Below, piece after piece: positions 3,001-18,060 of a stretch of 32,000 nucleotides of DNA (positions are counted from its first letter, which is position 1; each line of letters begins with the position of its first letter). A program made the position numbers and the translations under genes. The stretch covers positions 750,001 through 782,000 of the forward strand of contig NC_022349.1 in NCBI RefSeq assembly GCF_000354175.2, in the 5' to 3' direction. The notes beneath the pieces were generated by a model that searched no databases, was not told where the DNA came from, and saw only the letters and a list, made by a program, of their open reading frames with translations. Source of the DNA: Vibrio alginolyticus NBRC 15630 = ATCC 17749 (GTDB lineage: Bacteria; Pseudomonadota; Gammaproteobacteria; Enterobacterales; Vibrionaceae).

Positions 3001-6000
3001 ACACTGCCGTCCGGGTTGACCGAGACCGTGCCGTTGGCTGGACCGTGATTGGTATCCAGCGACACCACTTTATCGTCGCCTTCGAACGTGTCGTTACCTA
3101 AGACCTTGATGATGGTTGGCGTGTCTTCCACAACCGTCGCGCGGTCAGATTCAATATCTGCCACAGGCGCAACTGTGAAGTTCACCGTTTGGCTAACGCT
3201 CTCGCCGCTTGGATCGGTGGCCGTAAAGGTTAACGCTTCTGAGCCGTTCCAGTCTGCGGTTGGAGTGAACGTAGCAATACCATTGACGATCGCCACTTGA
3301 ATGTTGCTGTTGCCAGAGACAGTGAAGCTCAGCTCGCCATCAACATTATCCACATCGCTGAAAGCGGTATTCAGATTGATGCTGTATGGCGTAAAGTCTT
3401 CTGCTAAGGTTTGATCTGCGATGTTGCTCTCAACCACAGGCGCGTCGTTCACCGCATTCACGGTGACGTTAACCGTCGCTTGGTCAGTCAGCGCACCATC
3501 AGTGACGGTGTAAGTGATTTCAGCGTCACCATGGAAGTTCTCAGCTGGCGTGAACACCAGTTTGCCATCAACAATTTCAACTGTCCCTTGGTCACTCGGC
3601 ACAGATGCCGAGTCAATACGTAATGCATCACCATCGATGTCAGTATCGTTTGGCAGAACATCAATCGTCACTGGTGTATCTTCGTCAGTAACGGCATTGT
3701 CATTGGTCGCCACTGGCGCATCATTCACTGGTGTGACATCGACGTTCACCGTGGTGGACTCCGATACCCCACCGGACGTGGCGATGTAGGTGAAGCTGTC
3801 TGTACCGTGGAAGTTGTCGTTTGGCGTGTAAGTGACGCTGCCATCCGGGTTGACCGAGACCGTGCCGTTAGCTGGACCGTTGTTGGTATCCAGCGACACC
3901 ACTTTGTCGTCGCCTTCAAACGTGTCGTTACCTAAGACCTTGATGATGGTTGGCGTATCTTCCACAACCGTCGCTTTGTCTGCCACGATGTCCGCCACAG
4001 GGGCTACCGTGAAGTTCACCGTTTGGCTGACGCTTTCACCGCTTGGATCGGTAGCCGTAAAGGTCAATGCTTCTGAGCCGTTCCAGTCTGCGGTTGGAGT
4101 GAACGTAGCAATCCCATTGACGATCGCCACTTGAATGTTGCTATTACCAGAAACGCTGAAGCTCAAATCGCCATCGGCGTTATCCACATCACTGAAAGCG
4201 GTATTTAGATCGATGCTGTATGGCGTAAAATCTTCCGCCAAGGTTTGGTCTGCAATGTTGCTTTCAACCACAGGCGTGTCGTTCACCGCATTCACGGTGA
4301 CGTTGACCGTTGCTTGGTCAGTCAGTGCACCATCAGTAATCGTGTAAGTGATTTCAGCGTCACCATGGAAGTTCTCAGCTGGCGTGAACACCAACTTGCC
4401 GTCAACAATCTCGACTGTCCCTTGCTCACTCGGCACAGACGCCGAGTCAATCCACAGCTTATCGCCATCAATATCGGTGTCGTTTGGCAGGACATCAATC
4501 GTGACAGCGGTATCTTCTTGTGTTGTGGCCGTGTCATCGTTTGCCACTGGCGCATCATTCACTGGCGTCACATCGACGTTCACTGTGGTGGACTCCGATA
4601 CCCCACCCGATGTAACGATGTAGGTAAAACTGTCTGCCCCGTGATAGTTATCGTTTGGCGTGTAAGTGACGCTGCCGTCCGGGTTGACCGAGACCGTGTC
4701 GTTAGCTGGACCGTTGTTGGTATCCAGCGACACCACTTTGTCGTCGCCTTCGAACGTGTCGTTACCTAAGACCTTGATGATGGTTGGCGTATCTTCCACA
4801 ACCGTCGCTTTGTCTGCCACGATGTCCGCCACAGGGGCTACTGTGAAGTTCACCGTTTGGCTGACGCTTTCACCGCTTGGATCGGTAGCAGTAAAGGTCA
4901 ATGCTTCTGAGCCGTTCCAGTCTGCGGTTGGAGTGAACGTAGCAATCCCATTGACGATCGCCACTTGAATGTTGCTATTACCAGAGACGCTGAAGCTCAG
5001 CTCGCCATCCACGTTATCCACATCGCTGAAAGCGGTATTTAGATCGATGCTGTATGGCGTAAAGTCTTCCGCCAAGGTTTGGTCTGCAATGTTGCTTTCA
5101 ACCACAGGCGTGTCGTTCACCGCATTCACGGTGACGTTGACCGTCGCTTGGTCAGTCAGCGCACCATCGGTAACGGTGTAAGTGATTTCAGCGTCACCAT
5201 GGAAGTTCTCAGCCGGTGTGAACACCAGTTTTCCATCAACAATCTCGACTGTCCCTTGCTCACTCGGCACAGACGCCGAGTCAATCGACAGCGTATCGCC
5301 ATCAATGTCGGTGTCGTTTGGCAGGACATCAATCGTCACTGGCGTGTCTTCGTCAGTAACAGCGGTATCATCTTTTGCCACTGGCGCATCGTTGACTGGC
5401 GTGACATCGACGTTCACCTTGGTGGATTCACTGACGCCACCGGACGTCACGATGTAGGTGAAGCTGTCTGTACCGTGGTAGTTGTCGTTCGGCGTGTAAG
5501 TCACGCTGCCGTCCGGGTTGACCGAGACCGTACCGTTAGCTGGACCGTGATTGCTATCCAGCGACACCACTTTATCGTCGCCTTCGAACGTGTCGTTACC
5601 TAAGACCTTGATGATGGTCGGCGTGTCTTCCACAACCGTCGCGTTGTCTGCCACGATGTCCGCCACAGGGGCTACCGTGAAGTTCACCGTTTGGCTAACG
5701 CTTTCACCGCTTGGATCGGTCGCCGTAAAGGTCAACGCTTCAGAGCCGTTCCAGTCCGCAGTTGGAGTGAACGTAGCAATGCCATTGACGATCGCCACTT
5801 GAATGTTGCTGTTGCCAGAAACGCTGAAGCTCAGCTCGCCATCCACGTTATCTACATCGCTGAAAGCGGTATTTAGATCGATGCTGTATGGCGTAAAATC
5901 TTCCGCCAAGGTTTGGTCTGCAATGTTGCTTTCAACCACAGGCGTGTCGTTCACCGCATTCACGGTGACGTTGACCGTTGCTTGGTCAGTCAGTGCACCA

Positions 6001-9000
6001 TCAGTAATCGTGTAAGTAATTTCAGCGTCACCATGGAAGTTCTCAGCTGGCGTGAACACCAACTTGCCGTCAACAATCTCAACTGTGCCTTGCGCTTCAG
6101 GTACAGACGCCGATTCAATCGACAGCTTATCGCCATCGATGTCAGTATCGTTTGGCAGAACATCAATCGTCACTGGCGTATCTTCGTCAGTAACAGCGGT
6201 ATCATCTTTTGCCGCTGGCGCATCGTTGACTGGCGTGACATCGACGTTCACCGCGGTGGACTCCGATACCCCACCGGAGGTGACGATGTAGGTGAAGCTG
6301 TCTGTACCGTGGTAGTTGTCGTTTGGCGTGTAAGTGACGCTGCCATCCGGGTTGACCGAGACCGTGCCGTTCGCTGGACCGTTGTTGGTATCCAGCGACA
6401 CCACTTTGTCGTCGCCTTCGAACGTGTCGTTCTCTAAGACCTTGATGATGGTTGGCGTATCTTCCACAACCGTCGCTTTGTCTGCCACGATGTCCGCCAC
6501 AGGGGCTACTGTGAAGTTCACCGTTTGGCTGACGCTTTCACCGCTTGGATCGGTAGCAGTAAAGGTCAATGCTTCTGAGCCGTTCCAGTCTGCGGTTGGA
6601 GTGAACGTAGCAATCCCATTGACGATCGCCACTTGAATGTTGCTATTACCAGAAACGCTGAAGCTCAGATCGCCATCCACGTTATCCACATCGCTGAAAG
6701 CGGTATTCAGATTGATGCTGTATGGGGTGAAATCTTCCGCCAAGGTTTGGTCTGCAATGCTACTTTCAACCACAGGCGTGTCGTTCACCGCATTCACGGT
6801 GACGTTGACCGTCGCTTGGTCAGTCAGTGCACCATCGCTAACGGTGTAAGTGATTTCAGCGTCACCATGGAAGTTCTCAGCCGGTGTGAACACCAACTTG
6901 CCGTCAACAATTTCAACTGTACCTTGGTCACTCGGCACAGACGCCGAATCAATGCTTAACGTATCACCATCGATGTCAGTATCGTTTGGTAGGACATCAA
7001 TCGTCACTGGCGTGTCTTCGCCAGTGACAGCGGTATCATCTTTTGCCACTGGCGCATCGTTGACTGGCGTGACATCGACGTTCACCGTGGTGAATTCCGA
7101 TACCCCACCGGAGGTAACGATGTACGTGAAGCTGTCTGTACCGTGGTAGTTGTCGTTTGGCGTGTAAGTGACGCTGCCGTCCAGGTTGACCGAGACCGTG
7201 CCGTTGGCTGGACCGTGATTGGTATCCAGCGACACCACTTTGTCGTCGCCTTCGAACGTGTCGTTACCTAAAACCTTAATGATGGTTGGTGTGTCTTCCA
7301 CAACCGTCGCGCGGTCAGATTCAATATCTGCCACAGGCGCAACTGTGAAGTTCACCGTTTGGCTAACGCTTTCGCTGCTTGGATCGGTGGCGGTAAAGGT
7401 TAGGGTTTCTGAGCCGTTCCAGTCTGCGGTTGGAGTGAACGTAGCAATGCCATTGACGATCGCCACTTGAATGTTGCTGTTGCCGGAGACACTGAAGGTC
7501 AGATCGCCATCCACGTTATCTACATCGCTGAAAGCAGTATTTAGATCGATGCTGTATGGGGTGAAATCTTCCGCCAAGGTTTGGTCTGCAATGCTGCTTT
7601 CAACCACAGGCGTGTCGTTCACCGCATTCACGGTGACGTTGACCGTCGCTTGGTCAGTCAGTGCACCATCGGTGATGGTGTAAGTGATTTCGGCGTCACC
7701 ATGGAAGTTCTCAGCCGGTGTGAACACCAACTTACCATCAACAATCTCGACTGTCCCTTGCTCACTCGGCACAGACGCCGAATCAATGCTTAACGTATCA
7801 CCATCGATGTCAGTATCGTTTGGCAGAACATCAATCGTCACTGGTGTATCTTCGTCAGTAACAGCGGTATCATCGTTTGCCACTGGCGCATCATTCACTG
7901 GTGTGACATCGACGTTCACCGTGGTGGACTCACTGACCCCACCCGACGTAACGATGTACGTGAAGCTGTCTGTACCGTGGTAGTTGTCGTTCGGCGTGTA
8001 AGTGACGCTGCCGTCCGGGTTGACAGAGACCGTGCCGTTGGCTGGACCGTTATTGGTATCCAGCGACACCACTTTGTCGTCGCCTTCGAACGTGTCGTTA
8101 TCTAAGACCTTGATGATGGTTGGCGTGTCTTCCACAACCGTCGCGTTGTCTGCCACGATGTCCGCCACAGGCGCAACCGTGAAGTTCACCGTTTGGCTAA
8201 CGCTTTCGCCGCTTGGATCGGTCGCCGTAAAGGTCAATGCTTCTGAGCCGTTCCAGTCTGCCGTTGGAGTGAACGTAGCAATACCATTGACGATCGCCAC
8301 TTGAATGTTGCTATTACCAGAGACGCTAAACGTTAACTCGCCATCCACGTTATCTACATCGCTGAAAGCGGTATTCAGATCGATGCTGTATGGCGTAAAG
8401 TCTTCTGCCAAGGTTTGGTCTGCAATGCTGCTTTCAACCACAGGCGTGTCGTTCACCGCATTCACGGTGACGTTAACCGTCGCTTGGTCAGTCAGTGCAC
8501 CATCGGTCACGGTGTAAGTGATTTCGGCGTCGCCATAGAAGTTCTCGGCCGGTGTGAACACCAATTTGCCGTCAACAATCTCGACTGTGCCTTGCGCTTC
8601 AGGTACAGACGCTGATTGGATAGACAGCGTATCACCATCAATATCGGTGTCGTTTGGCAGGACATCAATCGTCACTGGCGTGTCTTCGTCAGTGACAGCG
8701 GTATCATCTTTTGCTACTGGCGCGTCATTGACTGGTGTGACATCGACGTTCACCGTGGTGGACTCACTGACGCCCCCGGAGGTAACGATGTACGTGAAGC
8801 TGTCTGTACCGTGGAAGTTGTCGTTTGGCGTGTAAGTGACGCTGCCATCCGGGTTGACCGAGACCGTGCCGTTGGCTGGACCGTTATTGGTATCCAGCGA
8901 CACCACTTTATCGTCGCCTTCGAACGTGTCGTTACCTAAGACCTTGATGATGGTTGGCGTGTCTTCCACGACCGTTGCTTTATCTGCCACGATGTCCGCC

Positions 9001-11417
9001 ACAGGCGCAACTGTGAAGTTCACCGTTTGGCTAACGCTTTCACCGCTTGGATCGGTCGCCGTAAAGGTCAATGCTTCTGATCCGTTCCAGTCTGCGGTTG
9101 GAGTGATCGTGGCAATGCCGTTGACGATCGCCACTTGAATGTTGCTGTTACCAGAGACGCTGAACGTTAACTCGCCATCCACGTTATCCACATCGCTGAA
9201 AGCGGTATTCAGATCGATGCTGTATGGCGTAAAGTCTTCCGCCAAGGTTTGGTCTGCAATGCTGCTTTCAACCACAGGCGTGTCGTTCACCGCATTCACG
9301 GTGACGTTGACCGTCGCTTGGTCAGTCAGTGCACCATCGGTCACGGTGTAAGTGATTTCGGCGTCGCCATAGAAGTTCTCGGCCGGTGTGAACACCAATT
9401 TGCCGTCAACAATCTCGACTGTGCCTTGCGCTTCAGGTACAGACGCTGATTGGATAGACAGCGTATCACCATCAATATCGGTGTCGTTTGGCAGGACATC
9501 AATCGTCACTGGCGTGTCTTCGTCAGTGACAGCGGTATCATCTTTTGCTACTGGCGCGTCATTGACTGGTGTGACATCGACGTTCACCGTGGTGGACTCC
9601 GATACCCCACCGGAGGTGACGATGTAGGTAAAGCTGTCTGCCCCGTGGAAGTTGTCGTTTGGCGTGTAAGTGACGCTGCCATCCGGGTTGACCGAGACCG
9701 TGCCATTGGCTGGACCGTTATTGGTATCGAGCGACACCACTTTATCGTCGCCTTCAAACGTGTCGTTACCTAAGACCTTAATGATGGTTGGTGTGTCTTC
9801 CACAACCGTCGCGTTGTCTGCCACGATGTCCGCCACTGGCGCAACTGTGAAGTTCACCGTTTGGCTAACGCTCTCGCCGCTTGGATCGGTGGCCGTAAAC
9901 GTCAACGCTTCTGAGCCGTTCCAGTCTGCGGTTGGAGTGAACGTAGCAATACCATTGACGATCGCCACTTGAATGTTGCTGTTGCCAGAAACGCTGAAGC
10001 TCAGCTCGCCATCCACGTTATCCACATCGCTGAAGGCCGTATTCAGATCGATGCTGTATGGCGTAAAGTCTTCCGCCAAGGCTTGGTCTGCAATGCTGCT
10101 TTCAACCACAGGCGCGTCGTTCACCGCATTCACGGTGACGTTGACCGTCGCTTGGTCAGTCAGCGCACCATCGGTGACGGTGTAAGTGATTTCAGCATCG
10201 CCATGGAAGTTCTCAGCCGGTGTGAACACCAGTTTGCCGTCAACAATCTCGACTGTCCCTTGGTCACTCGGCACAGATGCCGAGTCAATCGACAGCGTAT
10301 CGCCATCAATATCGGTGTCGTTTGGCAGGACATCAACCGTTACTGAGCTATCTTCCTCTGTAATTGTTGTATCATTAGAGGCAATAGGCGCATCGTTAAC
10401 TGAGTTTACTGTTACCGAAACTTGAGCTTCATCCTCTAACTCACCATCTGTGATGGTGTAGCTAATCGTTGCATTACCGTTGAAATTTTCAGCCGGAGTG
10501 AAAACAAGCTTACCATCGATAATCTCAACGATACCTTGCTCTTCTGGTACAGAAGCAGAGGTAATGATTAAATCATCACCTTCAATATCACTGTCGTTAG
10601 CGAGCACATCAATTACAACCTGGGAATCCTCGTCAGTTTGAATCGCATCATTAGTTGCTATTGGCGCGTCATTAACAGGCGTAATATCTAAGTTAGCAGT
10701 GCCATTAATAACACCGCCATCGTTATCAATAATGTCATAGGAGAATGACACTTCAGTGTCATCATCAGCCTCTGGAATGTAAGTCCAAGATCCATCGCTG
10801 TTATCAATTAAGGTGCCATTCCCACTCTCAATAGTGACGTTTGTAATGACAAGAGTATCGGCATCATCAATATTGACATTAGATAGTAATTCTTCAGTAG
10901 TTATCGTGATTGGATCGCTATCTTCCTCAACAGCGCTTAATGTCACTGGAGAATTAGTAAGTGGCTTACTTGAGCCATCCCCACTTGTCTCGATACCTGT
11001 TGTGAAGAAGTCATTTAAGGTCAACGCTTGTGTTTCAGATAAGCCGAGGGATTCTAGGCCAATAGTTTCAAAGTTTGTTGAGGCTAGCACTTCAGTACCA
11101 TCTCGTACAATCGTGGCACTATTTTGCAAACTGGAGCCACTATTTTCACCCGCTGCAGGTGCGAGTTCTTCATCAATAGCAGAAGGGTCTTGACCTTGCT
11201 CAATAGCACTAATAATCTGTGCTACATCGTCTGAAATATCTTTTAAGCCTTGCTCTTGAGCAAGCTGAATTTTCAGGTCTTGAGGCGCAGCATCTGTCAT
11301 TGCCACTATCACTTCACCTGGTAGAGGCTGCTGTCCTTCTGCAAGGACTCTCAGCTGCCCATCCAAACCTATTACGACGACTTGATTACCGAGTGGCACT
11401 AATGCTGTACGATCCAT
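1..11417 (-). CDS. Giant repetitive surface adhesin, LapA/BapA-like type I secretion substrate (partial: N-terminal 3,805 codons; C-terminus lies beyond the left window edge)
   Basis: Own minus-strand translation from ATG (complement of 11415-11417). AAGG lies 5 nt upstream and an in-frame TGA lies 8 codons upstream. N-terminus: MDRTALVPLGNQVVVIGLDGQLRVLAEGQQPLPGEVIVAMTDAAPQDLKIQLAQEQG... The frame (codon high coordinate = 2 mod 3) was translated in full for 10100-11417, 575-1020 and 3-107. It was spot-checked at 4973 and 8326 and stayed open with sensible domain sequence, but I did not inspect every codon. The gene is absent from the ORF track because it has no stop in the window. Confidence 0.9.
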   Translation of the reverse strand, partial: MDRTALVPLGNQVVVIGLDGQLRVLAEGQQPLPGEVIVAMTDAAPQDLKIQLAQEQGLKDISDDVAQIISAIEQGQDPSAIDEELAPAAGENSGSSLQNSATIVRDGTEVLASTNFETIGLESLGLSETQALTLNDFFTTGIETSGDGSSKPLTNSPVTLSAVEEDSDPITITTEELLSNVNIDDADTLVITNVTIESGNGTLIDNSDGSWTYIPEADDDTEVSFSYDIIDNDGGVINGTANLDITPVNDAPIATNDAIQTDEDSQVVIDVLANDSDIEGDDLIITSASVPEEQGIVEIIDGKLVFTPAENFNGNATISYTITDGELEDEAQVSVTVNSVNDAPIASNDTTITEEDSSVTVDVLPNDTDIDGDTLSIDSASVPSDQGTVEIVDGKLVFTPAENFHGDAEITYTVTDGALTDQATVNVTVNAVNDAPVVESSIADQALAEDFTPYSIDLNTAFSDVDNVDGELSFSVSGNSNIQVAIVNGIATFTPTADWNGSEALTFTATDPSGESVSQTVNFTVAPVADIVADNATVVEDTPTIIKVLGNDTFEGDDKVVSLDTNNGPANGTVSVNPDGSVTYTPNDNFHGADSFTYIVTSGGVSESTTVNVDVTPVNDAPVAKDDTAVTDEDTPVTIDVLPNDTDIDGDTLSIQSASVPEAQGTVEIVDGKLVFTPAENFYGDAEITYTVTDGALTDQATVNVTVNAVNDTPVVESSIADQTLAEDFTPYSIDLNTAFSDVDNVDGELTFSVSGNSNIQVAIVNGIATITPTADWNGSEALTFTATDPSGESVSQTVNFTVAPVADIVADKATVVEDTPTIIKVLGNDTFEGDDKVVSLDTNNGPANGTVSVNPDGSVTYTPNDNFHGTDSFTYIVTSGGVSESTTVNVDVTPVNDAPVAKDDTAVTDEDTPVTIDVLPNDTDIDGDTLSIQSASVPEAQGTVEIVDGKLVFTPAENFYGDAEITYTVTDGALTDQATVNVTVNAVNDTPVVESSIADQTLAEDFTPYSIDLNTAFSDVDNVDGELTFSVSGNSNIQVAIVNGIATFTPTADWNGSEALTFTATDPSGESVSQTVNFTVAPVADIVADNATVVEDTPTIIKVLDNDTFEGDDKVVSLDTNNGPANGTVSVNPDGSVTYTPNDNYHGTDSFTYIVTSGGVSESTTVNVDVTPVNDAPVANDDTAVTDEDTPVTIDVLPNDTDIDGDTLSIDSASVPSEQGTVEIVDGKLVFTPAENFHGDAEITYTITDGALTDQATVNVTVNAVNDTPVVESSIADQTLAEDFTPYSIDLNTAFSDVDNVDGDLTFSVSGNSNIQVAIVNGIATFTPTADWNGSETLTFTATDPSSESVSQTVNFTVAPVADIESDRATVVEDTPTIIKVLGNDTFEGDDKVVSLDTNHGPANGTVSVNLDGSVTYTPNDNYHGTDSFTYIVTSGGVSEFTTVNVDVTPVNDAPVAKDDTAVTGEDTPVTIDVLPNDTDIDGDTLSIDSASVPSDQGTVEIVDGKLVFTPAENFHGDAEITYTVSDGALTDQATVNVTVNAVNDTPVVESSIADQTLAEDFTPYSINLNTAFSDVDNVDGDLSFSVSGNSNIQVAIVNGIATFTPTADWNGSEALTFTATDPSGESVSQTVNFTVAPVADIVADKATVVEDTPTIIKVLENDTFEGDDKVVSLDTNNGPANGTVSVNPDGSVTYTPNDNYHGTDSFTYIVTSGGVSESTAVNVDVTPVNDAPAAKDDTAVTDEDTPVTIDVLPNDTDIDGDKLSIESASVPEAQGTVEIVDGKLVFTPAENFHGDAEITYTITDGALTDQATVNVTVNAVNDTPVVESNIADQTLAEDFTPYSIDLNTAFSDVDNVDGELSFSVSGNSNIQVAIVNGIATFTPTADWNGSEALTFTATDPSGESVSQTVNFTVAPVADIVADNATVVEDTPTIIKVLGNDTFEGDDKVVSLDSNHGPANGTVSVNPDGSVTYTPNDNYHGTDSFTYIVTSGGVSESTKVNVDVTPVNDAPVAKDDTAVTDEDTPVTIDVLPNDTDIDGDTLSIDSASVPSEQGTVEIVDGKLVFTPAENFHGDAEITYTVTDGALTDQATVNVTVNAVNDTPVVESNIADQTLAEDFTPYSIDLNTAFSDVDNVDGELSFSVSGNSNIQVAIVNGIATFTPTADWNGSEALTFTATDPSGESVSQTVNFTVAPVADIVADKATVVEDTPTIIKVLGNDTFEGDDKVVSLDTNNGPANDTVSVNPDGSVTYTPNDNYHGADSFTYIVTSGGVSESTTVNVDVTPVNDAPVANDDTATTQEDTAVTIDVLPNDTDIDGDKLWIDSASVPSEQGTVEIVDGKLVFTPAENFHGDAEITYTITDGALTDQATVNVTVNAVNDTPVVESNIADQTLAEDFTPYSIDLNTAFSDVDNADGDLSFSVSGNSNIQVAIVNGIATFTPTADWNGSEALTFTATDPSGESVSQTVNFTVAPVADIVADKATVVEDTPTIIKVLGNDTFEGDDKVVSLDTNNGPANGTVSVNPDGSVTYTPNDNFHGTDSFTYIATSGGVSESTTVNVDVTPVNDAPVATNDNAVTDEDTPVTIDVLPNDTDIDGDALRIDSASVPSDQGTVEIVDGKLVFTPAENFHGDAEITYTVTDGALTDQATVNVTVNAVNDAPVVESNIADQTLAEDFTPYSINLNTAFSDVDNVDGELSFTVSGNSNIQVAIVNGIATFTPTADWNGSEALTFTATDPSGESVSQTVNFTVAPVADIESDRATVVEDTPTIIKVLGNDTFEGDDKVVSLDTNHGPANGTVSVNPDGSVTYTPNDNYHGADSFTYIVTSGGVSESTTVNVDVTPVNDAPVANDDAATTQEDTAVTIDVLPNDTDIDGDTLRIDSASVPSDQGTVEIVDGKLVFTPAENFHGDAEITYTVTDGSLTDQATVNVTVNAVNDTPVVESNIADQTLAEDFTPYSIDLNTAFSDVDNVDGELSFSVSGNSNVLVSIENGIATISPTADWNGSEILIFTATDPSGESVSQTVNFTVAPVADIVADNATVVEDTPTIIKVLGNDTFEGDDKLVSLDTNHGPANGTVSVNPDGSVTYTPNDNYHGADSFTYIVTSGGVSESTTVNVDVTPVNDAPVANDDTATTQEDTAVTIDVLPNDTDIDGDKLWIDSASVPSEQGTVEIVDGKLVFTPAENFHGDAEITYTITDGALTDQATVNVTVNAVNDTPVVESNIADQTLAEDFTPYSIDLNTAFSDVDNADGELTFSVSGNSNIQVAIVNGIATFTPTADWNGSETLTFTATDPSGESVSQTVNFTVAPVADIESDRATVVEDTPTIIKVLGNDTFEGDDKVVSLDSNHGPANGTVSVNPDGSVTYTPNDNYHGTDSFTYIVTSGGVSESTAVNVDVTPVNDAPVAKDDTAVTDEDTPVTIDVLPNDTDIDGDKLSIESASVPETQGTVEIVDGKLVFTPAENFHGDAEITYTITDGSLTDQAKVAVTVNPVNDAPTIKVDAVESITEDAVNTGTVVATLEVADIDTPEEQLTVSLENNSNGYFALVGDEVKLTQAGVDAVNNDELNLKDLTISASVSDGVNPTVSDSDSLIVNRVNDAPTVDNVISDQVLAEDFTIYTIDLNDAFKDSDSALNFSVSGNSNVLVSIENGIATISPTADWNGSEALTFTATDPSGESVSQTVNFTVAPVADIESDRATVVEDTPTIIKVLGNDTFEGDDKVVSLDSNNGPANGTVSVNPDGSVTYTPNDNFHGADSFTYIVTSGGVSESTIVNVDVTPVNDKPDSEDFTHVADDQLTHVVFDTDTKP
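75..10385 (-). repeat. In-frame tandem array of 12 x 834 bp (278 codons). Each unit holds three ~92-93-aa cadherin-like/Ig-like domains (A-B-C). The last unit is interrupted by a unique 312-bp domain.
   Basis: Period markers (atgttgct/acgttgct) sit at 1633, 2467, 3301, 4135, 4969, 5803, 6637, 7471, 8305, 9139 and 9973, exactly 834 bp apart. VND(A/T/K)P linker codons are at 10386-10400, 10110-10124, 1212-1226, 936-950, 624-638 and 75-89. Domain A: VAKDDTAVTDEDTPVTIDVLPNDTDIDGDTLSI..GTVEIVDGKLVFTPAENF.GDAEITYTVTDGALTDQATVNVTVNAVND.P. Domain B: VVESSIADQ.LAEDFTPYSIDLNTAFSDVDNVDGEL.FSVSGNSNIQVAIVNGIAT.TPTADWNGSEALTFTATDPSGESVSQTVNFTVAPV. Domain C: ADIVAD.ATVVEDTPTIIKVLGNDTFEGDDKVVSLDTNNGPANGTVSVNPDGSVTYTPNDNFHGADSFTYIVTSGGVSETTVNVDVTPVNDAP. 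Confidence 0.9.
624..935 (-). other. Unique 104-aa classical-cadherin-like domain inserted between domain A and domain B of the last repeat unit
   Basis: Translation: TIKVDAVESITEDAVNTGTVVATLEVADIDTPEEQLTVSLENNSNGYFALVGDEVKLTQAGVDAVNNDELNLKDLTISASVSDGVNPTVSDSDSLIVNRVNDAP. The DNA here is unlike every other unit. The marker spacing 496 to 1633 is 1137 bp, which equals 834 + 303 bp. Confidence 0.8.
10386..10661 (-). other. Divergent founder copy of the A-type domain, lying N-terminal to the high-identity array
   Basis: Translation: IATNDAIQTDEDSQVVIDVLANDSDIEGDDLIITSASVPEEQGIVEIIDGKLVFTPAENFNGNATISYTITDGELEDEAQVSVTVNSVNDAP. It has the same 92-aa architecture as domain A but much lower DNA identity and lower GC. 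Confidence 0.75.
11148..11417 (-). other. N-terminal retention-module-like region ending at a PAAG di-alanine motif (candidate LapG-type protease site)
   Basis: Residues 1-90 resemble the beta-rich N-terminus of LapA-like retention modules. The pattern is V.LG..V.V....G..R.L..G..L..GE.I. Residues 87-90 are PAAG (complement of 11148-11159, cct gca gcg ggt). This fits the published (T/A/P)AA(G/V) motif and its residue 70-150 position. Confidence 0.55.
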
Positions 11418-11817
11418 ATAAACCTTAACCCTAAATAACTGTCAAGTTTTTGACTAACAATACTAATTTGCTATATATTGCCCTAATATATAGTGCAATA
11501 ACAGCAATTTGATGCTCAATAAAGTAATTATGTGTCATACATCAATAAGAATCCAGATGCATAAGTGTTTTATTTTATTAAAATCTGGACACTCGTTTCT
11601 AGCCATTACCTCCATCTTTAATTTGAGATCTTAATTCAAGTTTTAGGCAGATTTAGTAGGTTGATTTATCAAAATTGAAACAAATGAACAGCGAATCAAC
11701 AGGTTACTTCATCGCATATTAATGTTATTGTGCGCTAAATTATTGACGCCCTTATAAGTATTCCACTTATAAGCCCTATCACCTCGAGAATTTTTACCAT
11801 TATCTAGGAGAATCACA
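11418..11817. promoter_or_regulatory. 400-bp AT-rich divergent control region between the adhesin gene (-) and the TolC-family gene (+)
   Basis: No credible ORF. Dyads present: CTATATAT-N7-ATATATAG (11471-11493); TCCAGAT-N24-ATCTGGA (11552-11589); and two copies of the palindrome CTTATAAG (11751-11758 and 11766-11773). The CTTATAAG copies overlap a possible TTGACG (11743-11748) / TATAAG promoter for the TolC gene. Confidence 0.5.
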
Positions 11818-13128
11818 GTGAAGTGGACTCGTGCCAACGCCTTTTGTATTGGTATGTTCACCGCTAGTCATGCGTTTGGGCAAACGCTAGAGCAAGCGGT
11901 TGAAAACACATTAAAAACCAATCCTGACATCAAAAGTGCGTTCAATGAATTCGTTAGCAAGCAGTATGTGAATGAAGCATCTGGTGGTGCTTACCTCCCA
12001 TCCGTAGACTTAGATGCCGGTATCGGTTACGAAGGAATCAAACCCGCAGAGTCAGGGCGAGATTCAACCGACCTGACAAGAAAAGAAGCCACCGTGACAC
12101 TAACCCAGCTAATATGGGATGGCTCAGCGACACTTAATGATATGGATCGAACAGCAGCTGATGCTGAATCGGTCCGTTATCAACTTCTAGCTGATGCCCA
12201 AGACACCGCTCTAGAGGTCGCGAAAGTTTATTTAGACTCAGTAAAAGCTTATGAAATTCTTACACTTTCCGAGAATAACTTGAAAGTGCATAAGAAGATC
12301 TATGAAGACATTAAAAAGCGAGTTAACTCAGGTATCGGTTCTACAGCAGACCTAACCCAGGTAGAGGCTCGTTTAGCAAAGGCTCACGGTAACTTGGTGG
12401 CAGCTCAGAACAACTTATATGACAGCCACACCACCTTTACACGCCTTGTCGGACAGTCACCACAAGGATTGATTTTCCCAAGAGCGGACCAAAACTTTAT
12501 TCCCTACACCATCGATGAAGCGATTGACTTGGCATTCGAGTCACACCCAGTAATCAAAATCTCGGTAGCTGATGTGGACTCTGCAAAGTTCCAATACAAG
12601 CAATCTAAGGGAGCTTACTACCCAACGATATCGGTAGAAGCGGCTCAAACATGGCGTGATGATGCAAGCGGTATTGAAGGAAGCAGCGAAGAGACAACAG
12701 CGATGTTGCGCATGCGTTACAACCTCTTTAACGGTGGTAGTGACGTAGCCAACGCTGAAAGTTTTGCCTACCAACTAAATAAAGCAAAAGACTTAAGAGA
12801 ACGTGCATACCGCCAAGTCGAAGAAGGTCTTCGTCTATCTTGGAGTGCGTTAGATTTAACACTTCAACAAAAAGAGTTCCTAGCGGATCACGTAGATTCG
12901 GCCTCTGAAACTGTCATCGCCTACGAAAAGCAGTATCGCATTGGAAAACGCACTCTGCTGGACTTGTTAAATACTGAAAACGAACTTTTCGAAGCGAGAA
13001 AGAACTACTTGGATGCTCGATACTCAGAGCAGTACGCCAAGTACCGCGTTATGAACGCGACTGGCCAATTGTTAAATGCCTTGCGTGTCGATGTACCTAC
13101 AGAATGGAATGAAAAGGTGGAGTACTGA
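11818..13128 (+). CDS. TolC-family outer-membrane protein of a type I secretion system (AggA/LapE-like)
   Basis: GTG start with AGGAG (11806-11810) 7 nt upstream. Signal peptide ends ...SHAFG|QT. 436 aa. The N-terminal LEQAVENTLKTNPDIKSA and the overall two-repeat TolC architecture are recognised from the family. It is divergent from the adhesin gene. Confidence 0.85.
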   Translation: MKWTRANAFCIGMFTASHAFGQTLEQAVENTLKTNPDIKSAFNEFVSKQYVNEASGGAYLPSVDLDAGIGYEGIKPAESGRDSTDLTRKEATVTLTQLIWDGSATLNDMDRTAADAESVRYQLLADAQDTALEVAKVYLDSVKAYEILTLSENNLKVHKKIYEDIKKRVNSGIGSTADLTQVEARLAKAHGNLVAAQNNLYDSHTTFTRLVGQSPQGLIFPRADQNFIPYTIDEAIDLAFESHPVIKISVADVDSAKFQYKQSKGAYYPTISVEAAQTWRDDASGIEGSSEETTAMLRMRYNLFNGGSDVANAESFAYQLNKAKDLRERAYRQVEEGLRLSWSALDLTLQQKEFLADHVDSASETVIAYEKQYRIGKRTLLDLLNTENELFEARKNYLDARYSEQYAKYRVMNATGQLLNALRVDVPTEWNEKVEY

Positions 13129-13130
13129 TC

Positions 13131-13745
13131 ATGAAACCAGTGAAGATTCTATTTGCATTGGGTATGCTCGCCATCACTCAACACGTTGTTGCTGAAGACG
13201 AATATGAGTATCGTCCTGTACCAAATGCAGAACAAATAGCAGATTTGCAAGATGACGATAACGATGGTGTCATCAATGCTCGAGATATGTGCCCAGGTAC
13301 ACCTGAAGGCTCAGAGGTCGACAACGACGGTTGTGGAGAATACATTAAAGCATCAGATAACATGCAAGTGCGGATACTTTTTGCTAACGACTCTGATGAG
13401 ATCAATCCAGTCTTCAGAAGACAAGTCCGAGAGCTTTCCGACTTTTTAAAAGAGTACCCTACTACTTCGATAGAGCTGCACGGCTATGCTAGTAAAGTTG
13501 GTGGTTCAAAGCATAACCAAGATCTTTCTGAAAGACGAGCACGCAATGTACGTGAAGCCCTACTAAGCTACGACATCGAACCGAGTAGAGTCCGCATTGT
13601 TGGTTTTGGTGACACTCACTTAGCACAGCAAGGGACCGATGAAGTCAGCCATGCTTTAAATCGTCGAGTAACCGCATCAGTCGTTGGTTACAAAGGCGAG
13701 ATAAAAAGAGAGTGGACAATATTCACAACTCTTCCAGAAAGGTAA
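13131..13745 (+). CDS. OmpA-family protein with thrombospondin type-3-like Ca-binding repeats and an OmpA C-terminal-like peptidoglycan-binding domain
   Basis: The ATG is 2 nt after the TolC stop (tgatcATG), with AAGGTGGAG upstream, so the genes are translationally coupled. Signal peptide: MKPVKILFALGMLAITQHVVA. TSP3-like motifs: DDDNDGVINARDMCPGTPEGSEVDNDGCGE. OmpA_C core: ILFANDSDEI...ELHGYASKVGGSKHNQDLSERRARNVREAL...NRRVTASV. Confidence 0.8.
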   Translation: MKPVKILFALGMLAITQHVVAEDEYEYRPVPNAEQIADLQDDDNDGVINARDMCPGTPEGSEVDNDGCGEYIKASDNMQVRILFANDSDEINPVFRRQVRELSDFLKEYPTTSIELHGYASKVGGSKHNQDLSERRARNVREALLSYDIEPSRVRIVGFGDTHLAQQGTDEVSHALNRRVTASVVGYKGEIKREWTIFTTLPER

Positions 13746-13811
13746 AGTACCTGTTTTTGTTTGCTCTGCAAGCACAAAGCAAACAAAAACGAGTGAATAC
13801 TTAACCTCAGA

Positions 13812-13838
13812 AAAGGAGCTTCGGCTCCTTTATTTTTA
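13812..13838 (+). terminator. Rho-independent terminator after the TolC/OmpA pair
   Basis: AAAGGAGC-ttcg-GCTCCTTT followed by ATTTTTA. It is preceded by a second 13-bp perfect AT-rich hairpin at 13753-13790. Confidence 0.8.
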
Positions 13839-13920
13839 CTCATTTCGACAACCGTATTATGCTTTAGGAATCGGCACTTTAGTGTTACTCTAGCCACGTC
13901 ATAACAACGAGAGTTTTGAA

Positions 13921-14274
13921 ATGAGCAAACTTACATCAGATATCCAAGCGAACCTTGACCTTTTTGTTGCAGAAACGAAAGAAAACCAATTGGTTTGGGG
14001 TTTACGCAATGAAGAAGGTTGGCTATCTTGCGATTCAACTGAATTCGAAAACAGCGAAGTCATGCCTTTCTGGTCTTCTAAAGAAGATGCAGAAGCACAT
14101 AATGTTGAAGAATGGGCAGATTTTACTGTACTAGAAATCCCATTAGATATCTTTGTTGAAGATTGGCTTTTGACTCTTGCTGAAGATGGTGTTCTTGTTG
14201 GAACTAACTGGAACGATCAGTTAGAAGGCAAAGAAATGGAGCCTCAAGATCTAGCAAAGCTTTACATTGATTAA
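13921..14274 (+). CDS. DUF2750 domain protein (small acidic protein of unknown function)
   Basis: 117 aa. The pattern ...LVWGLRNEEGW...VMPFWSSKEDAEAH...FVEDWLLTLAEDGVLVGTNWNDQLEGKEMEP matches my recollection of the DUF2750 family. The gene has its own terminators on both sides. Confidence 0.65.
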   Translation: MSKLTSDIQANLDLFVAETKENQLVWGLRNEEGWLSCDSTEFENSEVMPFWSSKEDAEAHNVEEWADFTVLEIPLDIFVEDWLLTLAEDGVLVGTNWNDQLEGKEMEPQDLAKLYID

Positions 14275-14282
14275 AGATTTCT

Positions 14283-14315
14283 GACCTCAACTTTATGTTG
14301 AGGTCTTTCTTTTTA
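14283..14315 (+). terminator. Rho-independent terminator after the DUF2750 gene
   Basis: GACCTCAAC-tttat-GTTGAGGTC followed by TTTCTTTTTA. Confidence 0.8.
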
Positions 14316-14460
14316 TGCCTCTTCTTTCAATATCTCGACCAAGTGCATAGTTTCACTACTCTTTTTCTTAGTACACCCAACTTAATCACAACGCTGATGC
14401 GTTAAAAGCGCTATGATAACTCAACTTTAAAGGCACCTTAAATTAAAGGCTCGTTTAAAC

Positions 14461-16431
14461 ATGCGCGTGCTCTATCCCTTGCTTGCGTCACTTTTGCTCA
14501 CTCCAGTATATGCAAGCGACACTCAAGATATTGAACCAAACCAAAATATCACACAGTGGCACTCTGTCTACCAAACCACACTACGAAGCAACCCTGAGTC
14601 GGCATTGAGCATGCTTCAAGATCGCTACCATACAGCGAAATCGGACAGCGAAAAGCTCTACGTAAGTGGATTGATTTATGAATATATGTCAAACATAAAT
14701 CAGCCTTACTACGGCAGCAGTCAAGTCTTAGACAACCCTTTTTCTCAATTAGAATCAGAATATATTCTTGCCTTAAATGAACGTAAGCATGGTAGTTACG
14801 AGGCCTCAGTAGATAGCTTTTCTTCTTTGCGACAGACAATGAAGAAAATATCCGATTCCGAAGGCAAGGCTCTGATGAACTATCAACTTTGTTATACGCT
14901 GAATCAACAAGGTCGTTATCACAAAGCAAACTTTTATTGCTCATCCATAGAGAGCCACTTAAATCATAAGCATCAAGAAAACTTCCCTGTTGATCTTGCT
15001 TTGCGCGTGGTAGCAAATAACTACAATTACCGTGGTGACTATGAAAAAGCCTTAAGTTTGTATCGACAGTTGATGGCCAACATGTCGACGCAAAGCGATC
15101 CTTCAGGGATTTACAATGACGTCGGCAATTTACTTGCAGAGCTGGGGCAATTTGAACAATCAGAGCAATATCTCATTCAAGCCTTACTGGTTCGCCAAGA
15201 TGAAGGGACACCTCTTGAAGTTGCGCAAGTCGAACATAGTCTAGGAGCGATGTACAGAAAATCCAAAGAACTCGATAAGTCCATCAGCCACTACAAAAAT
15301 GCATTAACGATTCTCGAACAACTTCATTATCCATACGGGCAAGGGTTGACCTATTTAGGGTTATCTGCTGCTTTGGCCGATTCTGGGCAATTGGATACCG
15401 CGGTAGATTACATTGGAAGAGCATTAAACATTGCCCAAACTTATGAGAATACGCACCTTGAAACAGAGGGTCATTTGGCTGCTGGATTGGCATATTTAAA
15501 GAACCATACACCCGAAAAATCGATTGAACACGGTACAATTGCGTTAAGATTAGCGGTAAAAAACGCTAGGCCCTTATTGCAAGCGCAAGCCCAATTACTC
15601 CTCTCAAAAGCATACCAAGCTCAAAATGATTACAAAAAGGCGCTGGAGCATCACAAGGCCTACTCGACGATTGAACTAACGAACCGAGACGCGAGTAATA
15701 TCAAGGCGTTAGAGGCACTAGATCTCACTAAAAAAGAGTATGAATATGATCTACAAGTCGCGCAGTTGAACAACGAAACTCTTCAAAGTCAGTACCAGTT
15801 TGAAAAACTCACAGACCAACAACGCACTTATAATTTTGTTGTTTTCTGTTTATTGGTTCTCCTCGCTCTGGCATTGATGGTTCAGCGACAAACACGCTTA
15901 AAAGCCAAAATAGACAGCTTAACGTGTGCATTAAACAGAGCGGCAATTATAGAGACGATTAAAAGCCACACCTCCAAAGCGGAAGGAGACTTCCGCTACG
16001 TTCTAGCATTAATCGATCTAGATGACTTTAAGGCGATTAATGATCAGTATGGTCATCCGACTGGCGACTTAGTACTACAACAGGTATGCAAAGCGCTTAA
16101 AGCTAAACTTAATAAGGGAGAGTACTTGGGTCGTTTAGGTGGAGAAGAGTTTATCTTGCTATTGAAAAACGTCGATGAGATTGACGTTCCCTTTAGAATA
16201 CAAAGTCTGCATAAAACAATTTCAGAAAAGAGTGTACATTCGCTTAATAACCATCAATTGAATATATCTGCGAGTCTGGCCTATCTATCAACCTCAATGC
16301 CACTCACCAACTTTGATGAGCTCTATTCGATATTAGACCAAGCGTTATACAATGCTAAGAAGCAAGGAAAAAACTCCCTTGTGGATGCATACAACGAGCC
16401 GATCAGTTTAAGTGCTGAGTATATTCTCTAA
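14461..16431 (+). CDS. Membrane-bound diguanylate cyclase with domain order signal peptide, periplasmic TPR-repeat domain, TM helix, GGDEF (GGEEF) domain
   Basis: Signal peptide: MRVLYPLLASLLLTPVYA|SD. About 430 aa of TPR-like helical repeats follow (YNYRGDYEKALSLYRQL, LGAMYRKSKELDKSISHYKNAL, LSKAYQAQNDYKKALEHHKA). TM helix: FVVFCLLVLLALALMV (about residues 458-478). GGDEF domain: LALIDLDDFKAINDQYGHPTGD...RLGGEEFILLL (GGEEF at 16138-16152). The position equivalent to the RxxD I-site reads NKGE. Confidence 0.85.
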   Translation: MRVLYPLLASLLLTPVYASDTQDIEPNQNITQWHSVYQTTLRSNPESALSMLQDRYHTAKSDSEKLYVSGLIYEYMSNINQPYYGSSQVLDNPFSQLESEYILALNERKHGSYEASVDSFSSLRQTMKKISDSEGKALMNYQLCYTLNQQGRYHKANFYCSSIESHLNHKHQENFPVDLALRVVANNYNYRGDYEKALSLYRQLMANMSTQSDPSGIYNDVGNLLAELGQFEQSEQYLIQALLVRQDEGTPLEVAQVEHSLGAMYRKSKELDKSISHYKNALTILEQLHYPYGQGLTYLGLSAALADSGQLDTAVDYIGRALNIAQTYENTHLETEGHLAAGLAYLKNHTPEKSIEHGTIALRLAVKNARPLLQAQAQLLLSKAYQAQNDYKKALEHHKAYSTIELTNRDASNIKALEALDLTKKEYEYDLQVAQLNNETLQSQYQFEKLTDQQRTYNFVVFCLLVLLALALMVQRQTRLKAKIDSLTCALNRAAIIETIKSHTSKAEGDFRYVLALIDLDDFKAINDQYGHPTGDLVLQQVCKALKAKLNKGEYLGRLGGEEFILLLKNVDEIDVPFRIQSLHKTISEKSVHSLNNHQLNISASLAYLSTSMPLTNFDELYSILDQALYNAKKQGKNSLVDAYNEPISLSAEYIL

Positions 16432-16437
16432 TAAAAC

Positions 16438-16460
16438 CAAACCACCAGCGTAGTGGTTTG
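16438..16460 (+). terminator. Possible terminator hairpin after the diguanylate cyclase gene
   Basis: CAAACCAC-cagcgta-GTGGTTTG followed by TTATAGG (weak T-tract). Confidence 0.4.
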
Positions 16461-16518
16461 TTATAGGTGGAAGCATCAGTAAGCCATTCAGATGCAACAC
16501 CATCATCAAGGAGTCTTT

Positions 16519-17217
16519 GTGCCCAAGGCAAGAAAAAACATTCAGTCTCTAGAGCGAGGTTTTCTAATCCTCGAGTTGCTCTCGATGAGTGAGTCTCCCC
16601 TATCATTACAGACGATCAGTAATGCGATCCAGTTAAATAAGACGACTGTTCACGGGTTACTTGCGACTCTACACTCTCTTGGATATGTATCCAAACACAA
16701 CCATAGCTACAGCCTAGGGTTTAGATGCTATGAACTGTCTAAGCCGATTGAACAAAAAAACGAAGCTATCCGACAGCATTTTGTTCCATTGCTGAAAAAA
16801 ATGGCCCAAATGACTAACAACACTGCTTACCTCGCTGTACAAAGTGGCGCTAAAGAGTACTTGTATATCGATGCTATAGAGCAGGATAACCCTCTTACTA
16901 TCCGTAGCCCGAGAGGGAAACGAGAAGGACTCACAACATCTGCGATCGGCAAGGTTTTTCTTAGTTTTGATGATGAGCTTCGCCGAACATTGCGCCTTGA
17001 AAGCCAAATATCCCCCACGTTAGAAACTGAACTTAATCAGGTTGTATTATCAGGTTACGCACTCGATTTAGAAGAGGCAGAGCCAAACCTCAATTGCTTA
17101 GCGATCCCCCTTTATTTGGATGGTAAAGTCGTTGCTGTTGCAGGTGTTAGCGGTGCTGCCTCCGAACTGACGGTCACTAGGCTAAAACACTTTGCCAGCA
17201 TCTTTCTCAAATTTTAA
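16519..17217 (+). CDS. IclR-family transcriptional regulator
   Basis: The N-terminal wHTH (SLERGFLILELLSMSESPLSLQTISNAIQLNKTTVHGLLATLHSLGYV) plus a C-terminal effector domain are typical of IclR. The GTG at 16519 has AAGGAG 5 nt upstream. The longest ORF starts at the ATG at 16492, which has no SD. Confidence 0.8.
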   Translation: MPKARKNIQSLERGFLILELLSMSESPLSLQTISNAIQLNKTTVHGLLATLHSLGYVSKHNHSYSLGFRCYELSKPIEQKNEAIRQHFVPLLKKMAQMTNNTAYLAVQSGAKEYLYIDAIEQDNPLTIRSPRGKREGLTTSAIGKVFLSFDDELRRTLRLESQISPTLETELNQVVLSGYALDLEEAEPNLNCLAIPLYLDGKVVAVAGVSGAASELTVTRLKHFASIFLKF

Positions 17218-17323
17218 GATTTGACAATGTCGAATCCTAGGCCATTTTTATACTGTTTTGATTACATGCTTATACGTCGCCTCTAATATGGTCGTTGTTC
17301 AACTCAACAACGTAGGAGAAGCG

Positions 17324-18016
17324 ATGTCTACTGTATTAATCACCGGCGCTAACCGTGGCTTAGGCTTGCAATTTGTCCGCCACTACCTTGGAAAAGGTTG
17401 GCAAGTTATCGCAACTTGTCGTTCACCAGAAAATGCTAAGCAGCTCAATGAACTAGTAACCCAATCCAATCAACTTCAACTGATGGCTCTAGACGTCACT
17501 AACCAACAAGATATCGATCAGTTAGCCACTCAATTAGCGGATCGTCCGCTCGATCATTTAGTTCTTAATGCAGGTGTATTAGGCGAAGAGTGTGCAAAGC
17601 TTGGCGAAATGACCCAGAAAAAATGGCTAGAAGTACTAAACATAAATACCGTCGCACCTGCCCTGCTAATTCAAGCCCTACAAGACAACGTTGCGAAAAG
17701 TCAGCACAAAACCATCGTGGGAATCTCAACCCGAGTTGCGAGTTTAAGCGATAACAGTTCAGGTAACATGTACAGTTATCGAGCATCTAAAGCAGCGCTT
17801 AATCAGGTTCTAGTATCAGCAGCACGCAATCTCGAATCGCGAGGAGTAAAAACCGTCGCAGTTCATCCCGGCTGGGTAAAAACCGATATGGGCGGTGAGG
17901 ACGCAACCTTTTCTGCCGAGGAAAGTGTTGCAGGCATTGTTTCGGTCGCAGAACAGCTAACACTTAAGCTATCCGGAAGCTTCCGCGTATTTGATGGCTC
18001 TACAATCGAATGGTAA
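17324..18016 (+). CDS. Short-chain dehydrogenase/reductase (SDR) family oxidoreductase
   Basis: MSTVLITGANRGLG contains the TGxxxGxG cofactor motif. YSYRASK is the YxxxK catalytic motif. AGGAGA (17314-17319) lies 4 nt upstream of the ATG at 17324. The track ORF from 17258 adds 22 unlikely residues. Confidence 0.85.
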   Translation: MSTVLITGANRGLGLQFVRHYLGKGWQVIATCRSPENAKQLNELVTQSNQLQLMALDVTNQQDIDQLATQLADRPLDHLVLNAGVLGEECAKLGEMTQKKWLEVLNINTVAPALLIQALQDNVAKSQHKTIVGISTRVASLSDNSSGNMYSYRASKAALNQVLVSAARNLESRGVKTVAVHPGWVKTDMGGEDATFSAEESVAGIVSVAEQLTLKLSGSFRVFDGSTIEW

Positions 18017-18034
18017 CTGTTCTCTAAATGACGT

Positions 18035-18060
18035 CTCCCGGCCAAATTGAAGGCCGGGAG
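18035..18060. terminator. Hairpin between the convergent SDR and AKR genes (possible terminator)
   Basis: CTCCCGGCC-aaattgaa-GGCCGGGAG, a 9-bp GC-rich stem with no clear T-tract on either side. Confidence 0.35.

Follow-up and report, generated by a model that had tools for sequence, protein, structure and literature searches.

The window analysed here is a 32,000-nt stretch of Vibrio alginolyticus DNA (NC_022349.1) that holds the 5' part of a giant adhesin gene and, divergent from it, four genes encoding a TolC-type pore, an OmpA-like protein, a DUF2750 protein and a diguanylate cyclase (DGC) with tetratricopeptide repeats (TPR). The original prediction had grouped these four genes as one accessory module of the adhesin. 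All four open reading frames (ORFs) are present on the + strand where it had placed them, and the features of the locus are as follows.

1..11417, - strand: 5' part of the adhesin gene, at least 3805 codons, continuing past the left window edge (Pfam/NCBIfam matches, PAAG)
11418..11817, no strand: divergent intergenic region between the adhesin gene and tolC, 400 bp, in which the promoters of both genes are placed
11818..13128, + strand: tolC (LapE-type), 436 aa, signal peptide (OEP, TIGR01844)
13131..13745, + strand: ompA-like gene, 204 aa, exported (Pfam OmpA, 62.4 bits)
13812..13831, + strand: terminator-like hairpin AAAGGAGCTTCGGCTCCTTT followed by a T-run, closing the tolC-ompA unit
13921..14274, + strand: DUF2750 (Imm16-family) gene, 117 aa (PF11042)
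14283..14305, + strand: terminator-like hairpin 3' of the DUF2750 gene
14461..16431, + strand: TPR-GGEEF cyclase gene, 656 aa (signal peptide, TPR, transmembrane segment, GGEEF)

A scan with an OmpA-like alignment, using one genome per species, gave 80 loci, all in Vibrio, and look-ups added five for a total of 85. These loci were compared by tblastn with the window proteins, their downstream ORFs were clustered, and a tree was built from TolC and OmpA.

The adhesin ORF starts at 11417 on the - strand, 400 bp from tolC, and stays open for at least 3805 codons (at least 3805 aa) to the window edge. Its N-terminus matches the retention_LapA model with 36 bits, under the cut-off of 50, a LapG-type site (PAAG) lies at residues 87-90, and domain models find Cadherin_5, Big_9 and tandem-95 repeats. 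Taken together, the weak retention match, the PAAG site and the repeats identify the protein, at the level of sequence, as a giant FrhA/LapA-class adhesin of the LapG-cleavable type. Its N-terminus is 41-88% identical to the N-termini of the adhesins that adjoin TolC in related Vibrio loci.

On the + strand of positions 1-10400, apparent ORFs of 80-175 aa recur every 834 nt (3514/4348/5182 and 4245/5079/5913). These are shadow frames of the adhesin's 278-aa repeats and not genes. Tandem Repeats Finder reported no repeat in the adhesin, the 834-nt period taken from the ORF spacing being longer than its 500-nt limit. GC content is about 52-54% in the adhesin repeats, compared with about 40-46% elsewhere.

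A pattern scan of the 400 bp between the adhesin gene and tolC found only weak sigma-70-like matches. The tolC gene has a GTG start, an AGGAG Shine-Dalgarno sequence and a signal peptide. Its product scores 403 bits against TIGR01844 (type_I_sec_TolC, cut-off 225) and 204 bits against Pfam OEP in two stretches, and is the predicted LapE-type outer-membrane channel of a type I secretion system (T1SS).

Pairing of the pore gene and the ompA-like gene

The ATG of the ompA-like gene lies 2 nt past the tolC stop codon, with AAGGTGGAG within the tolC 3' end. Across the Vibrio loci (85/85), the distance from the TolC stop to the OmpA start stays between -1 and +11 nt, which bears out the translational coupling that had been predicted and shows that the ompA-like gene is always made jointly with the pore gene. 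The coupling also suggests that the two proteins form a complex. The layout of adhesin N-terminus (-), TolC (+) and OmpA-like (+) was found in 79 of the 85 loci. In three of the six exceptions (L046, L051 and L074), the contig ends inside tolC or shortly upstream of it; in the other three (L011, L060 and L066), tblastn gave no match to the window adhesin N-terminus within 8.6 kb upstream. TolC-OmpA-DUF2750 is kept in L011 (Vibrio sp. AND4) and L066 (Vibrio sp. WXL210), in L011 also with the cyclase, and a second TolC/OmpA match lies upstream in L011 in place of the adhesin. These two loci may reflect loss or replacement of the adhesin.

Up to three copies of the module occur per genome, as in V. 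diabolicus (L006, L023 and L076) and V. rotiferianus (L013, L025 and L032). The conjugative plasmid p1 of V. harveyi carries adhesin, TolC and OmpA-like without DUF2750 or the cyclase, and plasmid p1 of V. crassostreae has ABC-HlyD-TolC-OmpA with a tandem-95 adhesin nearby. The pair is part of a Lap operon in Salinivibrio and Photobacterium; this operon reads membrane fusion protein (MFP)-TolC-OmpA-LapG (Peptidase_C93)-LapD (LapD_MoxY_N/HAMP/GGDEF/EAL)-ABC, and one V. fluvialis record reads adhesin / TolC-OmpA-MFP-LapG-LapD-ABC. On plasmid pACLO of Arcobacter cloacae the two are a single protein: ACLO_RS13850 (L093:9916-12498) is an 860-aa TolC-TSP3-OmpA protein with two OEP matches, TSP_3 at 32.1 bits and OmpA at 102 bits, and is a Rosetta-stone fusion. 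Genes for a T1SS ABC protein, for HlyD, for a response regulator and for a product longer than 3400 aa lie downstream of it.

The coupling in 85/85 loci, the co-duplication with the adhesin, the plasmid-borne trio, the embedding in Lap operons and the Arcobacter fusion support TolC and the OmpA-like protein as a dedicated two-gene accessory unit of the adhesin, in which the OmpA-like protein is the dedicated partner of the pore. In Vibrio, the adhesin-tolC-ompA trio is a modular, duplicable cassette, and ABC, MFP and LapG/LapD are encoded elsewhere in the genus. Domain scans of the 15.5 kb to the right of these genes (16.5-32 kb) found no ABC transporter, MFP, LapG or LapD gene.

Tandem chromosomal adhesin-TolC-OmpA modules were seen at L006 and L023 (V. 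diabolicus CCKK01000020.1, about 13.9 kb apart) and at L010 and L016 (V. owensii), with the second TolC-OmpA just past the 3' end of the first adhesin. A second adhesin module may also lie to the left of the V. alginolyticus window. A plasmid match in Marinobacter adhaerens was rejected as a TolC partner: it is a classical barrel-OmpA adjoining Ig-like proteins.

The gene order recalls the Bpf system of Shewanella. In S. putrefaciens (Sputcn32_3591-3597) the OmpA-like gene comes right after the TolC-type gene, as in V. alginolyticus, and SO4321 / Sputcn32_3595 is likened to the V. alginolyticus gene by position and not by sequence. Within bpfA-aggCBA-SO4321-bpfG-bpfD, SO4321 is transcribed jointly with the rest of the 7-gene bpfA operon. 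A strain that has lost SO4321 forms less biofilm, and the role of the gene is stated as undefined (PMC4523816, PMC3672883); it has also been listed as a T1SS component (PMC8938473). The original prediction had mentioned a TolC-then-OmpA order in Shewanella with no defined function. The order is right (aggA, SO4320, then SO4321), but the gene is not without data, given the biofilm defect of the deletion. Salinivibrio and Photobacterium have the same TolC-OmpA-LapG-LapD order as Shewanella Bpf, whereas V. alginolyticus keeps only TolC-OmpA with the adhesin, in divergent orientation, and has ABC, MFP and LapG/LapD elsewhere.

The FrhA system of V. cholerae has cadherin-type repeats, a retention module, a LapG site and a split layout in common with the V. 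alginolyticus locus. Its lapBCDG genes lie on chromosome 2, which leaves just the LapE-like VC1621 beside frhA (VC1620) (PMC6890996). Compared with the window, the V. cholerae locus (L028) matches at 73% in TolC and 65% in the OmpA-like protein, but is without DUF2750 and the DGC. The FrhA paper, which names VC1621 as LapE-like, has 0 occurrences of the OmpA-like gene (PMC6890996). The Lap system of Pseudomonas fluorescens is of the same class, with an adhesin plugged in a TolC-type pore, di-alanine cleavage by LapG and control by LapD through cyclic di-GMP (c-di-GMP) (PMC6890996). Unlike the V. alginolyticus locus, its lapA cluster has no OmpA-like gene in Figure 1A of PMC4523816.

The DUF2750 gene and the cyclase gene

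A hairpin followed by a T-run was found after the OmpA-like gene in 44 of 56 orthologous intergenic regions and after DUF2750 in 41 of 56, with stem sequences that differ. These conserved terminator-like hairpins, set against the tight TolC-OmpA junction, suggest that the four genes are probably transcribed as three units, namely tolC-ompA, DUF2750 and the cyclase. A four-gene operon was rejected, the hairpins separating the units.

DUF2750 follows OmpA in 54 of the 81 loci that were scored. DUF2750 and the DGC are both present in 44, DUF2750 alone in 8 and neither in 23; the DGC never occurs without DUF2750. The loci with these genes fall within a single broad lineage of the TolC+OmpA tree and have common downstream genes, as expected of a single orthologous chromosomal locus. 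Harveyi-clade paralogues are nested in the DUF2750+DGC lineage and are without both genes, and neither gene is present in any duplicate or plasmid-borne module (23/81 loci with neither, plus the V. harveyi plasmid record). In V. cholerae, the three parts are at three separate places, and L028 consists of adhesin, TolC and OmpA-like only.

The DUF2750 protein matches PF11042 with 111.8 bits, compared with a threshold of 27. It is 117 aa long and strongly acidic (isoelectric point 4.05), and with no signal peptide or transmembrane segment it is predicted to be cytoplasmic. It is 76-100% identical across Vibrio, Aliivibrio, Enterovibrio and Veronia, and is an independent Vibrionaceae core gene. 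The genes around it are less conserved (OmpA 53-94%, TolC 65-97% and DGC 33-86% identity) and vary by lineage, as seen in the window and in L086, L087 and L088. The orthologues of V. cholerae and V. fluvialis are 80-81% identical to the window protein and lie in unrelated surroundings; the one of V. cholerae (80%) has a chemoreceptor gene on one side and a PRA-PH gene on the other. A structure model of the protein reached a predicted local distance difference test (pLDDT) score of 75, and a fold search matched only an uncharacterised Thermus protein, 2z0r, with a TM-score of about 0.6.

The cyclase has a signal peptide, a TPR region at about residues 140-400 that would be periplasmic, a single transmembrane segment at about 454-478 and a GGEEF motif at 560 on the predicted cytoplasmic side. 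Its DxDxFKxxND..GHxxGD and ALYxAKxxGKN motifs align to solved DGCs, and the substrate and metal residues are kept. This agrees with the earlier call of a predicted active DGC with a periplasmic sensor, and the protein is predicted to be a periplasmic-sensing DGC that feeds the cellular c-di-GMP pool. An RxxD I-site was not found upstream of GGEEF in the window cyclase or in 37/37 orthologues with GGEEF; an active DGC need not have one.

The cyclase is predicted active in 37 of 45 orthologues. Altered active-site motifs (NGTEF, GSNEL and SGEEF) were seen in L004/L005 (V. navarrensis), L018, L022, L026, L027, L029 and L080, with NGTEF in V. navarrensis and GSNEL in Vibrio sp. CAU 1672, both of which keep the adjacency to the module. 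Because these motifs replace GGEEF, some lineages appear to keep the gene without full, or any, cyclase activity. The family is small: clustering at 50% leaves about 16 full-length representatives, which belong to Vibrio, Aliivibrio and Pseudoalteromonas. The window cyclase probably corresponds to VA1419 in the c-di-GMP catalogue of V. alginolyticus, a 657-aa protein with RxGGEEF and without an I-site, no other TPR-type GGDEF protein being listed there (PMC10552763). The catalogue notes the neighbours of VA1419 as biofilm-related, did not assay VA1419 itself, and places lapD (VA3814) far from it (PMC10552763).

In nearly all species, clustering of downstream ORFs showed queC, queE, HAD and NUDIX/PAP2 genes following the cyclase, and the queC-queE-HAD-NUDIX flank is core-genome backbone. 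The V. cholerae orthologue, from a cluster of 1122 sequences, is convergent with queC-queE-HAD. A neighbourhood look-up of the V. cholerae and V. plantisponsor cyclase orthologues did not find the adhesin, TolC, OmpA or DUF2750 near them, and a third taxon also keeps the cyclase beside queC without the module. Set beside GcbC of P. fluorescens, the window DGC is of a TPR-sensor type, and a GcbC-like co-inheritance with the Lap machinery was not seen: the V. cholerae, V. plantisponsor and third-taxon orthologues beside queC are without the module, and paralogous and plasmid modules are without the cyclase. Nothing ties the cyclase specifically to the V. alginolyticus adhesin. At a V. harveyi paralogous locus, a different gene, a dCache-GGDEF (L036:10714-12255, - strand), is convergent to the OmpA-like gene, a second and non-homologous case of a DGC next to the module.

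DUF2750 and the DGC were dropped from the module because they are absent from paralogues and plasmids, are separate in V. cholerae, V. fluvialis and V. plantisponsor, and are set off by hairpins. They are best explained as separate, probably monocistronic neighbours through ancestral Vibrio gene order, beside queC-queE in most species. Of the local unit proposed in the original prediction, the TolC/OmpA-like half stands (85/85 loci), while DUF2750 and the DGC are missing from the duplicate and plasmid modules and have hairpins between them. Synteny with giant adhesins divides in the same way, TolC and OmpA being always together and the other two being separate in V. cholerae.

The OmpA-like protein and its possible role

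The OmpA-like protein scores 62.4 bits against Pfam OmpA (PF00691; gathering score 27.2) and is 100% identical to V. alginolyticus database entries. A type-I signal peptide precedes the mature N-terminus EDEYEY, and the C-terminal tail reads EWTIFTTLP. Across the 85 Vibrio loci, the mature N-terminus always begins (G/E)DEY(D/E)Y and the EWTIFT tail is conserved; the export signal is type-I in 70/85 and a lipobox in 15/85. The original prediction had described TSP3 repeats. Pfam TSP_3 (PF02412) gives a single match, at residues 40-59, with 15.7-18.8 bits against a threshold of 25, so the plural falls away. What holds is a TSP3-like acidic loop, with the motif DxDxDGVINxRDxCP...NDGC invariant among the orthologues and two Cys framing it (a likely disulfide), and the fused Arcobacter homologue, at 32.1 bits, passes the threshold.

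OmpA_C domains of the OprF, AbOmpA and Pal types contact diaminopimelate through the Asp of their GHTD motif (AbOmpA D271). The window protein has Ser121 in place of this Asp (GYAS, residues 118-121). The motif reads AS in 79/85 and TS in 6/85 Vibrio proteins, and GHASA in Salinivibrio and GHASK in the Arcobacter fusion; genes with the Ser signature lie at 13131-13745 of the window, L092:11998-12606 and L093:11896-12498. The partner Arg of the LSxRRA motif (R136, equivalent to AbOmpA R286) is invariant. By sequence, the OmpA_C fold is matched by 5u1h (3e-17), 3td3 (5e-13) and 5wtl, the last across residues 41-184, including the TSP3-like part. The protein thus has the fold in common with the C-domains of OprF and AbOmpA and with the OmpA-family protein 5wtl, but differs from the OprF/AbOmpA-type anchors in having no beta-barrel and in having AS or TS for the TD of GHTD.

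The reading we favour, and consider fairly probable, is that the locus holds one true accessory unit, the bicistronic tolC-ompA-like pair divergent from the adhesin, along with two unrelated neighbours, and that the pair works by bracing. The TolC-type trimer would be the outer-membrane pore that holds the N-terminal retention module of the adhesin. The co-translated OmpA/TSP3-like protein would be an exported periplasmic protein, lipidated in some paralogues, and would be in complex with the pore. There it would most likely brace or position the pore against the cell-wall layer through its putative Ca-binding TSP3-like loop and its atypical OmpA_C domain. Such bracing of the loaded pore against the wall layer, which we infer from these features, would keep the load-bearing adhesin from being pulled out of the membrane.

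Several points weigh against this reading. Because the Asp-to-Ser change in the peptidoglycan-binding pocket is invariant, a textbook OmpA-type wall anchor is questionable; peptidoglycan binding is not assured and a simple wall tether is uncertain. A lipid anchor is absent in 70/85 OmpA-like proteins, so any link to the outer membrane there would have to run through protein contacts. The AlphaFold2 model of the protein alone is poor (pLDDT 54, with the N-terminal 76 residues below 50, from a 13-sequence alignment), and the searched literature held no experiment on the Vibrio OmpA-like protein. The terminator calls are pattern matches, not transcript data. DUF2750 and the DGC adjoin the module in 44 loci, and a lineage-specific functional link is possible. 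Aliivibrio fischeri has DUF2750 in direct divergent orientation to an adhesin that bears TAAG, and neither TolC nor OmpA lies between the two, although this adjacency would fit ancestral gene order rather than a functional tie.

A rather unlikely alternative, but a serious rival, is that the OmpA-like protein is a partner of the pore and not a peptidoglycan anchor, its OmpA_C fold having been re-purposed as a Ca-dependent gate, chaperone or assembly factor. Its ligand might be the periplasmic retention module of the adhesin, the equatorial domain of TolC or the tip of the MFP. Ser in place of the Asp is constant in Vibrio, Salinivibrio and Arcobacter alike, and the family has three conserved features of its own that lie outside the OmpA fold: a mature N-terminus of the DEYDY type, the TSP3-like loop with its disulfide frame, and the EWTIFT tail. 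The Shewanella authors proposed a role in adhesin localisation or translocation, not in wall binding (PMC4523816). Against re-purposing, the LSxRRA Arg and the rest of the pocket are kept. Wall-anchoring OmpA_C/MotB-like accessories also recur in secretion machines, among them SiiA of the Salmonella SPI-4 system, where SiiA/SiiB provide a peptidoglycan-binding OmpA/MotB-like accessory on a T1SS that displays the giant adhesin SiiE (preprint 10.1101/641415). SiiA is an inner-membrane, MotB-like stator partner of SiiB, whereas the OmpA-like protein is soluble or lipidated in the periplasm, pairs with an outer-membrane component and is without the canonical Asp.

The other two alternatives concern the neighbours. 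The grouping of all four genes as one local unit, in which OmpA/TSP3 tethers the loaded pore, the DGC signals to LapD and DUF2750 is a fourth part, seems to us quite improbable. It draws on the identical order in 44 loci, on a DGC predicted active in the window and 37/45 orthologues, on the dCache-GGDEF beside the V. harveyi paralogue, and on the local DGC-LapD signalling established for GcbC in P. fluorescens. The published record adds the general LapD c-di-GMP circuit, V. cholerae craA, which also has an adjacent DGC that its authors noted as a possible link (both PMC6890996), and the biofilm-related flag on the neighbours of VA1419 (PMC10552763). Yet the 44 co-occurrences fall in one lineage with a common queC/queE/HAD flank and are not independent events, the DGC's constant neighbour is queC-queE, and the duplicated and plasmid modules do without both genes. 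The parts are separate in V. cholerae and V. plantisponsor, conserved hairpins stand between the units, and the catalytic motif is degenerate despite adjacency in V. navarrensis (NGTEF) and Vibrio sp. CAU 1672 (GSNEL). With about 60 c-di-GMP genes per Vibrio genome (PMC10552763), chance adjacency is expected at times. DUF2750 might instead be an immunity protein of the polymorphic-toxin kind, orphaned next to this locus and unconnected with adhesion, which we also judge unlikely. A polymorphic-toxin survey named the family Imm16 (PMC3482391) and Imm16 is linked to Ntox8 and L,D-peptidase toxins (PMC3482391; bioRxiv 10.1101/2020.02.18.954545), and the window protein, with its PF11042 match, is acidic and has no signal peptide or transmembrane segment. 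However, domain scans of the neighbours found no toxin gene beside DUF2750 in the window, L001-L005 or L086-L088, its identity of 76-100% is far above the usual conservation of immunity genes and points to a housekeeping partner, and the uncharacterised Thermus protein is the only fold match.

A broader proposal is possible, though we would put it a little short of an even chance. The OmpA/TSP3-like proteins with the hallmarks of Ser for the wall-binding Asp, the DEYDY mature N-terminus and the EWTIFT tail, here called AS-type, may serve the Lap-type adhesin T1SS of Vibrionaceae, of Shewanella and of some Campylobacterota as a fourth structural subunit dedicated to it. Docked on the LapE-type pore, they would couple it to the wall or the retention module in a Ca-dependent way. 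If true, such a subunit would explain how load is borne by an adhesin that is held only via a plug in an outer-membrane pore. The current model for LapA, FrhA, BpfA and MpIBP covers secretion and release, not how the adhesin-holding pore is anchored, and the OmpA-like gene is the sole constant companion of the pore gene in Vibrionaceae. Publications on FrhA of V. cholerae do not discuss this gene, and it is a target relevant to a pathogen adhesin. The FrhA/Bpf-type adhesin, the LapE-type pore and an OmpA-like partner are of an already known kind; the invariant Ser signature is new, and DUF2750 and the adjacent DGC are removed as candidates for the adhesin module.

The right-hand part of the window

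From 16.5 to 32 kb, the window encodes an IclR regulator, SDR and AKR proteins, two LysR regulators, a luciferase-like protein, an MFS transporter, a TetR regulator, an ADH, an AraC/DJ-1 protein, an SBP and a permease. The 3' side of the cyclase (16432-32000) is therefore at least 15.5 kb of regulators, oxidoreductases and transporters, and not queC-queE-HAD-NUDIX as in V. diabolicus and most Vibrio. This flank looks like a V. alginolyticus-specific insertion or rearrangement. A hairpin with a 10-bp stem lies at 16438-16460, between the cyclase stop (16431) and the IclR start (16492), and has a terminator score for the - strand only.

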